DNA of 64,000 nt from assembly GCA_022785265.1 (NCBI GenBank), contig JALFQD010000409.1, positions 46,222 to 110,221 of the forward strand, given 5' to 3'. Within the stretch, counting starts at the first letter, position 1; every line of letters starts with the position of its first letter. Below the pieces are notes generated by a model. It did not search any database. It had not been told where the DNA came from and saw only the letters and a list, made by a program, of their open reading frames with translations. A program made the position numbers and the translations under genes. Source of the stretch: Clostridium sp. Lineage in GTDB: Bacteria > Bacillota > Clostridia > Clostridiales > Clostridiaceae. This document shows, piece by piece, positions 56,434-58,502 of this stretch.

Positions 56434-56796
56434 ATGGGATTGAAAGATATTAAGCCACATCAGGTTAGTCGAAATCTAAAGGGGTATTCTGTATTCTTTT
56501 ATGGAGAGCCAAAAAGTGGTAAAACAACTATTGCCACTAAGTTCCCGCGAGCATTGCTCTTAGCGTTTGAAAAGGGTTATAACGCACTTCCTGGAGTTAT
56601 GGCCCAGCCCATAAATAGTTGGGGTGACTTCAAGAAAGCGCTCACAGAGTTGAGAGATCCTGAAGTGCAAGAAATGTTTGAAACGGTTATAGTAGATACA
56701 GCAGATATTGCTTATAGCTACTGCGAAAAGTACATTTGCAGTCGTGAGAGCGACCAAAAGAATACATATGAAACTGTTGCTGATATACCTTACGGT
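56434..56796 (+). CDS. Sak4/AAA_24-like RecA-fold ATPase, exon 1
   Basis: Walker A FFYGEPKSGKTT and Walker B VIVDTAD. Reading past GGT (56796) gives KIFAAY then a stop. Confidence 0.65.
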
Positions 56797-57878
56797 AAAA
56801 TCTTTGCCGCTTATTAATGGTAACATTAATTAGAAAATCGTAGTAAAAAACTGGAACCCTGAAATGGGAATCAGAGCGGAAGGTCAGGTTTAAAAGCCTT
56901 ACCACGCACAACGCATAGAAAAATTAAACATTAGAGGAGGATTGCCTCGGCATGGGGAAATCAATAAAATTAACATTAGAGCAGGAACAACAGATAATTT
57001 ATAATTATACTGTTTTAAAACAGGGCCAAAAAAAAGCGGGAGCTTTTATTCCGGTAAGTGATCATATTGTTAAAAAAGTTTTAAATAAATACAATATTCC
57101 TATTAAAACTCTTCAAGAAACTAATGCCAATAAATATTATATTAATCATGACTTTTTTAAAGTACAAAATGAAGATATGGCTTATTGGTTAGGAATTTTA
57201 GGTTCTGACGGTTGTATTAGTTCTATGGAAAATCAAATTTATATAGAATTGCAACGACAAGATAAAGAACTTTTAGAAAAATTAAATGCAATTATAGAGA
57301 ATCAGCGCCCCGTTAAAGATTATGAAACCGCTCGAGGTTATGAAAACAGTAAATTATATTTTTATTCTAAAGAAATAAAAAATGATTTAGCTCAATATCA
57401 TATAATACCTAATAAAACTTATAATCCAGAGTATCGTTTTCCAGAAAAATTAAAGTTTCAATATATTAAAGACTATATTAGAGGATTATTTGATGGAGAT
57501 GGAAGTATTAAACAAGGGACTTCAATTACTTGGCAAGTTGATACAGGTTCTTATGATATTGCAAAAAAAATTGTTGAATTTTTTACAAAATATGATATTG
57601 AATTACAAATTTCTTTTTTGTCTAAAAAAAATGTAACTATATATAGAGTATATGGCTATACTAAACAAAAAATTCAAAAAATTTATAATTTACTTTATAA
57701 TACACAGTCAACGCTTTATCTAAAACGAAAAAAAGAAAAATTTGAAGAACTCCTTAAATGATATAGTTTTCCACGAGACTACGACATCTTATGCATTAAG
57801 ATGAAAAGATATGCTGAACTTATACGAATAAAAAGTATAAGAACTAAAAGATAAAAAGCTTTTAGGATAACAAAATTG
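56797..57878 (+). mobile_element. putative group I intron carrying a LAGLIDADG homing endonuclease gene
   Basis: Splits the AAA_24 gene. 5' exon ends in U (ggT), intron ends in G (57878). Intron GCCG at 56811-56814 can pair with exon CGGU (P1). The core GGAACCCT.AAATGGGAATC is shared with the gyrB intron. The spliced protein reads ...ADIPYG|KGYTMAQDEF. Confidence 0.55.
56952..57761 (+). CDS. LAGLIDADG homing endonuclease (intron-encoded)
   Basis: Two motifs: WLGILGSDGCI and IRGLFDGDGSI. RBS gaggagg. Confidence 0.8.
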   Translation: MGKSIKLTLEQEQQIIYNYTVLKQGQKKAGAFIPVSDHIVKKVLNKYNIPIKTLQETNANKYYINHDFFKVQNEDMAYWLGILGSDGCISSMENQIYIELQRQDKELLEKLNAIIENQRPVKDYETARGYENSKLYFYSKEIKNDLAQYHIIPNKTYNPEYRFPEKLKFQYIKDYIRGLFDGDGSIKQGTSITWQVDTGSYDIAKKIVEFFTKYDIELQISFLSKKNVTIYRVYGYTKQKIQKIYNLLYNTQSTLYLKRKKEKFEELLK

Positions 57879-58502
57879 AAAGGTTATACAATGGCGCAGG
57901 ATGAATTTGACACATGCATCCGCAAAATTCTTCAGTTGAATTATGGCCTTGTTCTTATCAGCCATTCAACTGAAAAAACTTTTACCAATGAAAAGGGCCA
58001 AGAGGTATCAAAGATAGTGCCTACTCTTGACAAGCGCGCTCGTCTTGTTTGTGAGAGAACTTGTGATATAATAGGCTATTCTCGTGCTATTGATACTGAT
58101 GATGGTAATAAGACCATTCTATTTATGCGTGGTACTCCTCGCTTTGTTGCGGGTAGTCGCTTCCGCTTTACTCCTGATTTTATTGAGTTTTCTTATGATA
58201 ACTTGGTAAATGCAATTGCGGAAGCTATAGACAAGGAAGCTGCAGCTTCAAATGGCACTCTTGTTACTGATGAAAAGACTCAGGTAGTAAGTCAGGAAGA
58301 GACTTATGATTTTGAAGCTCTTATGAAAGAGTTCCAAGATTTAGTTGGTATTTTGATGCAGAAAGATCAGGGCAATGCCATAAAGATTACTCAGATTGTT
58401 GATAAGCATCTGGGTAAGGGTAAGAAGGTTGGCGATTGTACTGCTGAGCAGGCCGCAATTATTGACCTTATAGTTCATGATATAAAGGCTCTGAATAAGT
58501 AA
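57879..58502 (+). CDS. Sak4/AAA_24-like ATPase, exon 2
   Basis: Continues the RecA-fold (LVLISHSTEK...). No plausible own start. Frame is open upstream to the intron. Confidence 0.6.
   Translation, partial: KGYTMAQDEFDTCIRKILQLNYGLVLISHSTEKTFTNEKGQEVSKIVPTLDKRARLVCERTCDIIGYSRAIDTDDGNKTILFMRGTPRFVAGSRFRFTPDFIEFSYDNLVNAIAEAIDKEAAASNGTLVTDEKTQVVSQEETYDFEALMKEFQDLVGILMQKDQGNAIKITQIVDKHLGKGKKVGDCTAEQAAIIDLIVHDIKALNK

Follow-up and report, generated by a model that had tools for sequence, protein, structure and literature searches.

A subgroup IA group I intron with a predicted LAGLIDADG homing endonuclease interrupts a Sak4-like ATPase gene in a phage known from metagenomes

Introduction

Introns of subgroup IA interrupt the td, nrdB and nrdD genes of phage T4, the DNA polymerase gene of SPO1 and orf142 of Twort, where a ribozyme core lies in a conserved motif of a DNA-metabolism gene, an extra P7.1 helix is present, a loop-confined open reading frame (ORF) has its own Shine–Dalgarno sequence, and presence/absence polymorphism is seen (PMC3984707). 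All of these features recur at the locus described here, positions 56434–58502 (+ strand) of a 64,000-nucleotide (nt) stretch of a Clostridium sp. assembly (GCA_022785265.1, contig JALFQD010000409.1, positions 46,222 to 110,221; hereafter the window), in which a Sak4-like ATPase gene is interrupted by a 1082-nt group I intron containing a predicted LAGLIDADG homing endonuclease gene. The locus differs from typical phage introns in two respects. Its RNA family is scored below threshold by the Rfam group I model RF00028, and its enzyme is of the LAGLIDADG type, whereas phage intron endonucleases are most often GIY-YIG, HNH, PD-(D/E)xK or EDxHD enzymes and LAGLIDADG enzymes are mainly organellar, bacterial and archaeal (PMC3984707).

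The nearest homologue of the endonuclease in a cultured phage is the 'intron-encoded endonuclease' of the Staphylococcus phages Romulus and Remus (NC_020877; homologous over 91 % of the length, 32 % identity, E 6e-19), which likewise interrupts a recombination ATPase gene of a large Firmicutes phage. The Romulus host gene, however, is RecA-like, not Sak4/AAA_24, and its ribozyme is of a different lineage with canonical GUUCAACGACUA ... AAGAUAUAGUC elements; the Romulus recA intron was ruled out as a member of the RNA family described here, having no match to the covariance model of that family (R1, below). GenBank relatives of the RNA itself occur in phages 6ec, phiCD211, cr128_1, bajarodcaudo virus 1 and PJN02, with 75–87 % identity over the 3' arm. 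They share the P7, P7.1, P3', P8, P9 and P9.1 layout and the GGAUAACA tail, and all split essential genes, but the host genes are others and many copies lack an ORF, contain HNH or other ORFs, or, as judged by eye, have the ORF in other loops. No intron of this family was found in a Sak4 gene among the cultured phages searched. Of enzymes with solved structures, I-Tsp061I, I-AniI, bI3 maturase and I-OnuI (PDB 2dch, 3eh8/1p8k, 2ab5 and 6bda) have, as here, two tandem domains with LAGLIDADG helices ending in an acidic residue (Foldseek E 2e-8 to 2e-5, probability 1.00, at a sequence identity of only 10–20 %), the window enzyme differing by an extra N-terminal helical domain of ~60 amino acids (aa). 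The window enzyme might also act as a maturase, as I-AniI and bI3 do.

A full-text literature search returned no report of an intron in a Sak4 gene, the only paper with both terms, on phage SPP1, being left aside. LAGLIDADG enzymes are not new in phages, given the existing PHROG family and the Romulus/Remus homologue. What is new is the host gene and the site; the machinery is familiar and would not surprise a specialist.

An optional insertion in a Sak4-like gene

Three ORFs were present on the + strand between 56434 and 58502, namely 56434–56817 (127 aa), 56952–57761 (269 aa) and 57876–58502 (208 aa). The first matched positions 2–94 of the Pfam AAA_24 profile (82 bits) and the third positions 100–195 (47 bits). 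When 56434–56796 was joined to 57879–58502, the resulting 328-aa protein gave a single contiguous AAA_24 match (positions 2–195 of 195, 141 bits, E 5e-41), a match to phrog_124 'Sak4-like ssDNA annealing protein' (E 4.7e-50) and a single tblastn piece against uninterrupted Sak4 genes of Enterococcus phages (98 % coverage, 49 % identity, E 9e-96), the closest cultured Sak4. Exon 1 (56434–56796, + strand, 121 codons, ending ...CCTTACGGT) carries Walker A GEPKSGKT and the Walker B-like VIVDTAD, whilst exon 2 (57879–58502, + strand, 207 codons plus stop) begins with AAAGGTTAT, encoding KGY. The window and those Enterococcus phages have a gene order in common (unknown phrog_2367, Sak4, unknown phrog_4680, DnaB-like helicase), and the YorF-YorG-YorH-DnaB order at the Sak4 locus is as in SPbeta. 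On sequence and profile matches the host gene is a phage Sak4-like (SPbeta YorG-like) AAA_24 ATPase with predicted annealing activity. The insert is in phase 0, between G121 and K122 of a PYGKGY motif, and the exon junction restores PYG|KGY. Uninterrupted homologues conserve this segment, with G121 and G123 invariant relative to VRE9_4 Sak4 and SPbeta YorG. An earlier note, made from the sequence alone, had proposed both that a Sak4/AAA_24 gene is split by an insert and that splicing would restore a YGKGY-type segment, and both proposals stand. The predicted ligated-exon junction is CCUUACGGU|AAAGGUUAU. An intrinsic-terminator-like hairpin (58512–58538, + strand; 12-base-pair (bp) stem followed by a T run) lies 3' of the gene, and no comparably strong terminator-like site was found between exon 1 and exon 2, where the sole + strand site is the P1 hairpin described below.

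Uninterrupted forms of the gene were also recovered. The protein database contained uninterrupted 328-aa proteins that were 96–99 % identical to the spliced product (e.g. P0001, 328 aa, 99 % identical), and four contigs of about 41 to 176 kb (L132–L135; one labelled pig gut metagenome, one from an NCBI assembly) carried intron-less alleles with the same neighbours of Sak4 as in the window. In these contigs the gene is 987 nt, exactly 363 + 624, is collinear with both window exons (exon 1 with codons 1–121) and aligns ungapped to the spliced window gene with 39–49 differences. The junction sequence in L132 (GATATACCTTACGGTAAAGGTTATACAATGG) and L134 is identical to the window exons for at least 27 nt on each side. 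The intron-minus alleles of L133 and L135 have synonymous changes at the site (-4 and +3, TATGGT|AAGGGT vs TACGGT|AAAGGT; variant site TATGGTAAGGGT), and such variants could resist the endonuclease or weaken P1/P10. In the related phages identified, the gene was either whole, with 987 nt, or carried this intron at this site; the two independent genes that the earlier note had set against an intron were not seen.

Since related contigs carry an uninterrupted 987-nt allele with an identical junction, 56797–57878 is an optional 1082-nt insertion at a precisely defined site. The insert begins with AAAATCTTTGCCG and ends with ...GATAACAAAATTG at 57878, with T at 56796 before the 5' junction and G at 57878 as its 3' end. 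AAA comes next after either junction, so that the insert can be placed in four ways with no change to the spliced product; only 56797–57878 gives both U(-1) and a terminal G, the group I boundary bases to which the earlier note had pointed. Removal of 56797–57878 restores the host reading frame exactly. The split Sak4 of Staphylococcus phage S-CoN_Ph8 (L005, 1477–2519) was considered and rejected as a further case; its coding sequences overlap (1477–1995 and 1959–2519) and are of the frameshift or sequencing-error type, not an intron.

A covarying group I ribozyme family

Comparison of the locus with GenBank phages by megablast gave no match, but sensitive blastn aligned the last ~120 nt of the insert to non-coding gaps splitting essential genes of unrelated phages, at the identity given above. 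These gaps were found in tape-measure genes (Staphylococcus 6ec, C. difficile phiCD211, Arcanobacterium TPWB06), major head genes (crAss-like cr128_1, bajarodcaudo virus 1) and a helicase/exonuclease gene pair (Bacillus PJN02). A 19-base motif of this 3' region, GATAAAAARCNNNNAGGATAACA, was present in at least 120 IMG/VR stretches, and many family copies lacked an ORF, measuring about 210–260 nt from P3 to the 3' end. We aligned the ORF-deleted window intron with 31 such ORF-less relatives using MAFFT (alignment A2, 32 sequences; 49 pairs in nine helices scored). The proportion of paired cells was 95.3 %, against 32–41 % with slid partners, with compensatory changes at 37 of the 49 pairs and a covariation score of 0.61 vs 0.07–0.14, a value reached by none of 500 shuffles; choosing the relatives by a perfect 6-bp complement in P3 inflates the figure for that helix, whereas no other helix was selected for. 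The window intron carries all 47 columns that are invariant in this alignment.

A covariance model, R1, was then built from the 31 relatives with the window excluded and P7 left unpaired. It matched the window at 57738–57882 (88.4 bits, E 1.4e-22) and 56837–56973 (27.3 bits, E 8.6e-6), the two arms flanking the ORF, and matched no other part of the window convincingly. It gave no match to the Romulus recA intron, to the uninterrupted Sak4 locus of Enterococcus or to the intron-less loci L132 and L133. A sensitive blastn search of the window with the two intron arms agreed with R1 in finding no second family member. The model recovered 118 copies in 100 IMG/VR loci, several of which had two to three copies. 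In an alignment to the model of 109 distinct sequences (A4), which was fitted to it for every helix except P7, 92.8 % of cells were paired (31–45 % when slid), 45 of 49 pairs showed compensatory changes, and 0/500 shuffles reached the observed values. P7, outside the model, was paired in 99.1 % of cells over the 109 sequences, its bulge-flanking pair being AU in 63 and GC in 32, the next pair G-C in 95 of 97 and the inner pair AU in 57 and GC in 36.

Family hallmarks are the P9.1 loop (G)AUAAAAAG(C), the GGAUAACA tail and a CCAMGAG joiner, and members split capsid, tape-measure, helicase and Sak4 genes in Firmicutes and crAss-like phages. Some further observations concern the family at large. 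By eye, the ORF ends before or overlapping the guide/P2 (P1 loop) in some members and before P5' (P5 loop) in others (e.g. L008, L040, L101 and L128 versus L011, L022, L036 and L104). Many family ORFs end in '...YL.RK..KF' like that of the window, which suggests related LAGLIDADG genes at different positions. In phiCD211 (L003, 2376–2914), two distinct group I introns seem to adjoin in the tape-measure gap: a member of the R1 family at ~2376–2630 and, directly after it, an annotated Intron_gpI at 2650–2914 (RF00028, 41.7 bits).

Architecture of the intron RNA

The intron (56797–57878, + strand; all elements below are on this strand) opens with P1 (56793–56809), in which exon CGGU (56793–56796) and intron AAA (56797–56799) face the guide UUUGCCG (56803–56809), with U56796 and G56806 forming a wobble pair at the 5' splice site. 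This helix was recovered by unconstrained minimum free energy (MFE) folding, and a like arrangement occurs in L144, L147, L009 and L030. The pairing of a GCCG guide with exon CGGU had been recognised in the earlier note, which placed the guide 15 nt into the intron; it in fact starts 10 nt in, at 56806–56809, and its pairing includes the U.G wobble. CUUU (56802–56805) can pair with AAAG of the 3' exon (57879–57882), a putative P10. The P2 hairpin (56813–56830; AUUAAUG/CAUUAAU with a GUAA loop) appears in the MFE fold, and relatives have different P2 stems with GAAA or GUAA loops at the same place, as judged by eye.

The core then follows in order. The 5' strand of P3 (UCGUAGU, 56838–56844) is a perfect 7-bp complement of 57778–57784, with compensatory changes in all seven pairs in A4. 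The P4–P5 domain (56851–56874) consists of P4 CUGG/UCAG (56851–56854/56871–56874) and P5 CCC/GGG (56857–56859/56866–56868) with a UGAAAU loop; both helices covary, and the region aligns to the P4/P5 consensus of RF00028, as seen in the relative L002. P6 (56876–56907), with GCG...CGC closing pairs and inner AAGG/CCUU, was recovered by folding, and all three closing pairs covary. The 5' strand of P7 (56911–56917; A56911, bulged C56912 and GCAUA at 56913–56917) pairs with UAUGCU (57810–57815) and crosses P3, forming the group I pseudoknot. The guanosine-binding site is usually marked in sequence by a bulged nucleotide beside a conserved G-C pair of P7; the window has this pattern (A56911-U57815, bulged C56912, G56913-C57814), which makes G56913-C57814 the candidate guanosine-binding pair. 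P7.1 is formed by GAAAA (56918–56922) and UUUUC (57767–57771) and encloses the endonuclease ORF, and it is 97–100 % paired with compensatory changes in four of five pairs in A2 and five of five in A4.

On the 3' side, covariance model match and covariation place the P7.1 strand, the conserved joiner CACGAG (57772–57777) and the P3 3' strand ACUACGA (57778–57784) in succession (57767–57784). P8 (57785–57803; CAUCUUA/UAAGAUG) was found by folding, and five of five counted pairs covary. The joining segment J8/7 AAAAGA and the P7 3' strand UAUGCU (57804–57815) resemble AAGAUAU of the RF00028 consensus. The remaining 57819–57878 comprise P9 (CUUAUAC/GUAUAAG), P9.1 (CUAAAAG/CUUUUAG, conserved loop AUAAAAAG) and the tail GAUAACAAAAUUG to G57878; P9 and P9.1 are 99 % paired with compensatory changes in A4 and were recovered by the fold. 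A candidate P7 5' strand directly upstream of P3' (CCACGAG) was dropped, there being no complementary 3' strand and the alignment placing P7.1 between. When the ORF-deleted intron plus 14 nt of exon was folded without constraints, P1, P2, P3, P4, P5, P6, P7.1, P8, P9 and P9.1 were recovered (MFE -67.5 kcal/mol, z = -4.8, 0/200 shuffles as stable).

A helix between P7 and P3' is a hallmark of subgroup IA (PMC3984707), and the extra P7.1 helix at that place makes 56797–57878 an IA-type group I intron. The group I assignment made in the earlier note is borne out by the family covariation, the P3/P7 pseudoknot and the R1 matches on both arms. Other intervening elements, such as a group II intron, an intein or an IStron-like chimera, might be considered in view of the enzyme type: inteins and a few group II introns also have LAGLIDADG enzymes (PMC13190283), and DnaB in relatives of this phage appears to contain a LAGLIDADG insertion resembling an intein. 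An intein is contradicted by stop codons in frame with the exons and by 272 nt of non-coding RNA, and the insert, at only 1082 nt, has no reverse transcriptase or transposase gene (no direct search was made for group II domain V or boundary motifs), whilst the pseudoknotted P3–P9 architecture and terminal G are those of a group I intron. We regard any such element as extremely improbable.

Weighing the group I assignment against curated models

Several points weigh against reading the insert as a functional group I intron. The pre-selection behind A2 and the fitting of A4 to its model, noted above, are two of these. A third is that RF00028 gave nothing credible on 56600–58100 at E ≤ 10, and a fourth that the ORF-less relatives likewise scored under the RF00028 gathering score of 50 bits. 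Within the intron, the P7.1 internal-loop sequences (AUUAAAC... / ...GAUAUAG) differ from the family consensus (UGAA... / ...AAUAUAAU), and P4 and P5 have only 4 and 3 bp, respectively. Downstream, an ATG at 57891, annotated by gene callers, stands shortly after AAAGG, and the exon 2 ORF could in principle be translated independently.

At the Rfam gathering threshold, the whole window returned only six tRNAs. We discounted the negative result at the Sak4 locus because the ORF-less relatives are also sub-threshold and the 810-nt ORF exceeds the tolerance of the model; the gathering score is moreover a curated annotation threshold and not a structural requirement. Two relatives matched RF00028 over its full length, L002 with 26.6 bits (E 7.9e-5), with P3, P4/P5 and P8 where they are placed here, and L106 with 39.9 bits (E 9.5e-7). 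The covariance search for a group I core recommended by the earlier note was therefore negative on the window with RF00028 and positive on both arms with R1, the family model built without it.

Phage genes split by mobile endonuclease genes are known, and Sak4 could on this precedent be a truly split gene, with a free-standing homing endonuclease gene inside it and two halves that are translated separately and reassemble with no RNA splicing. Gene callers do annotate three separate ORFs (127, 269 and 203/208 aa), Rfam finds no ribozyme in the window, and the ATG at 57891 would allow independent translation of the second half. The 272 nt of non-coding sequence around the ORF, however, match a covarying ribozyme family at E 1e-22 and 9e-6 and are not spacer; these arms supply guide pairing with the exact exon end, and the insertion boundaries reproduce the intron-less allele to the nucleotide. 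Separate translation would also add IFAAY to one half and drop KGYT of the conserved motif from the other. We consider a split gene without splicing very unlikely, and favour the group I intron.

The LAGLIDADG endonuclease

The ORF enclosed by P7.1 (56952–57761, + strand, 269 aa) was assigned to the LAGLIDADG homing endonucleases by Pfam, phrog and predicted fold. LAGLIDADG_3 matched in two stretches with 39 bits (cut-off 22.5), and LAGLIDADG_WhiA was also above its curated cut-off. A Shine–Dalgarno sequence, GGAGG (56936–56940), lies 11 nt before the ATG, so that the two-motif ORF with its own ribosome-binding site described in the earlier note is confirmed. The motifs are YWLGILGSDG (D86) and IRGLFDGDGSI (D183); over 31 homologues of 45–89 % identity, D86 is invariant and D183 is present in at least 90 %. 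The protein matched phrog_4645 'endonuclease' over its full length (E 5e-40); its database homologues at E ≤ 1e-5 numbered 548, and LAGLIDADG Pfam domains were present in nearly all of the 120 that were listed. A sequence search of PDB gave no match. The AlphaFold2 model (predicted local distance difference test, 92.3; predicted template modelling score, 0.77) has an alpha-beta-beta-alpha-beta-beta-alpha unit twice, after the ~60-aa helical N-terminal domain. A Foldseek search of PDB gave 109 matches at E ≤ 0.001 (best E 1.6e-8, probability 1.00), and the matches listed were LAGLIDADG-fold proteins, namely the TliVMA intein endonuclease domain, I-Tsp061I, bI3 maturase, I-AniI, WhiA, PI-SceI and I-OnuI. 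On the predicted structure the ORF is a monomeric two-domain LAGLIDADG enzyme, for which DNA cleavage is predicted.

Within 56934–56948, the Shine–Dalgarno region GAGGAGG can pair, through GAGG, with CCUC (56945–56948) just before the ATG, a pairing seen in the fold that might restrain translation of the endonuclease from the precursor RNA.

Distribution and mobility

An identical endonuclease protein was found on at least 24 contigs (indexed in 64 blocks), and every context shown was this split Sak4. The intron-plus contigs L136–L142 are clonal with the window (0–2 differences in about 6 kb) and so say nothing on mobility. A more diverged carrier, L029 (IMG/VR UViG_3300045988_175607), was informative. 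Its intron differs from that of the window at 19 of 1082 positions (1.8 %; 98.2 % identity), whereas differences number 79 over 355 aligned positions in exon 1 (22 %) and 42 over 624 in exon 2 (6.7 %). Next to the intron, 27 nt of exon sequence on the upstream side and 26 nt on the downstream side are identical. Homing with short co-conversion tracts would be expected to give such a pattern, as would a conserved target site. There is, in short, presence/absence polymorphism at one site among close relatives, with an intron less diverged than its exons in L029.

More distant phages carry endonuclease homologues with 70 % (P0131) and 49 % (P0228) identity in the same YorF/Sak4/YorH/DnaB neighbourhood, flanked by R1-family arms at the same site (IPFG|KGY in L144, LGYG|KGW in L147). 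In both L144 and L147 the 5' junction is preceded by U and the 3' junction by G, and the guide is UUUGCC. The Sak4 genes of the ENA contigs L147–L149 contain two introns of the R1 family, each with a LAGLIDADG ORF, at the site used in the window (LGYG|KGW) and inside Walker A (IYGA|PKTGKTT). The DnaB-like neighbour in these contigs is an 873-aa protein with Hom_end/LAGLIDADG_3 matches, which suggests an intein.

This distribution also bears on whether the intron has decayed, such that it no longer splices, its endonuclease is inactive, or both, leaving Sak4 a pseudogene in this phage. The P7.1 internal loop that departs from the family consensus and the short P4 and P5 would fit decay. Yet the window intron keeps all 47 invariant family columns and every core helix, its ORF is complete and retains both catalytic Asp positions, and the identical element occurs in at least 24 contigs, with the same site kept where the endonuclease gene is only 49–70 % identical. 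Such persistence would hardly be expected if a replication/recombination gene that is otherwise conserved had been lost, and decay is accordingly a reading that we hold to be most improbable.

Taken together, the insert is best explained as a mobile group I intron of functional type that encodes a LAGLIDADG homing endonuclease, an explanation to which we assign a probability of roughly 0.9. The insertion at a single site, the covarying RNA architecture, the endonuclease fold and the pattern of presence, absence and divergence are observations; catalysis, splicing in vivo, the cleavage site and homing we infer from them as follows. Exon 1, intron and exon 2 would be transcribed as one RNA, in which the intron would fold into the P1–P9.1 core. 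An external guanosine bound at the P7 G-C pair would attack after U56796, held in the U.G wobble with the guide UUUGCCG, and the freed exon 1 would attack after the terminal G57878, joining the exons into an mRNA for the 328-aa protein. The endonuclease would cut intron-less Sak4 alleles of co-infecting phages around ...CCTTACGGT|AAAGGTTAT..., and repair from the intron-bearing copy would convert the allele.

Other features of the window

A second intervening sequence is present in gyrB (exon 1 45279–46799, exon 2 47060–47467), where an ORF-less 260-nt putative group I intron at 46800–47059 sits in the Toprim motif (IMMAADA|DPDGE); its 5' junction is preceded by U and its 3' junction by G. After splicing, GyrB would have 642 aa and gains a DNA_gyraseB_C match and a longer Toprim match. 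The sequence has a P1 (GCUAAUU/GAUUGGC), canonical GACUA...AAAUAGUC elements and a fold z of -4.1; Rfam gave nothing for it at E ≤ 1, and it is not a member of the R1 family. The earlier note had the Sak4 intron share its core sequence with this gyrB intron, which did not hold as worded. That core sequence is the 20-mer GGAACCCTGAAATGGGAATC, i.e. P4-P5-P5'-P4', and it occurs once in the window even when three mismatches are allowed; the gyrB intervening sequence shares only the flanking GGAACCCT and TGGGAATC, with a longer loop (19 nt) between them, which represent the generic P4/P5 region.

Between gyrB and Sak4, an 851-nt segment at 52408–53258, with a 77-aa Cys-rich ORF at 52801–53034, is absent from L132 and L135. 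A GIY-YIG homing-endonuclease-like ORF at 53811–54239 has 142 aa, against 322 aa in L132/L134, and is probably truncated, to judge from this comparison. An 814-aa ORF with matches to Pfam MVP_shoulder (73 bits) and Vault_3 (39.6 bits) adjoins an SPFH/Band 7 ORF (29646–30518 and 30779–33223), a vault-like or SPFH-related pair that is unusual in a phage. The six tRNA genes lie at 3680–3766 and 16680–17893, and other products encoded in the window are GyrB, GyrA, an NAD-dependent DNA ligase, an RNA-ligase-like protein, DnaB, a Toprim protein and a RecJ-like protein. The phage contigs concerned measure ~175 kb and are known only from metagenomes, one related contig being labelled pig gut.

Implications

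At this locus, annotation should join 56434–56796 with 57879–58502 as one Sak4-like gene in place of two fragments and an endonuclease. The wider question is how often the same happens elsewhere. No family member tested reached the RF00028 gathering score, and most GenBank phage records leave family sequence unannotated or as 'hypothetical protein'. The intron comes from an IA-type lineage poorly represented in the curated model, which accounts for the negative Rfam result. We tentatively raise, as a possibility that we ourselves rate as doubtful, that it is a member of a large, sequence-coherent IA-type subfamily largely missed by current annotation. If that is true and no dedicated model exists, such a model would correct many mis-called split genes, and the family would show one ribozyme chassis hosting endonuclease ORFs in different loops. 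Split core genes are probably under-recognised in phage and metagenome annotation because RF00028 misses an abundant phage intron family.

For the biology of these phages, the locus is a clean natural case of a phage recombination gene interrupted by a group I intron that bears a LAGLIDADG ORF. With intron-plus alleles, intron-minus alleles and a diverged carrier available, it provides a ready target sequence for work on homing and endonuclease specificity.

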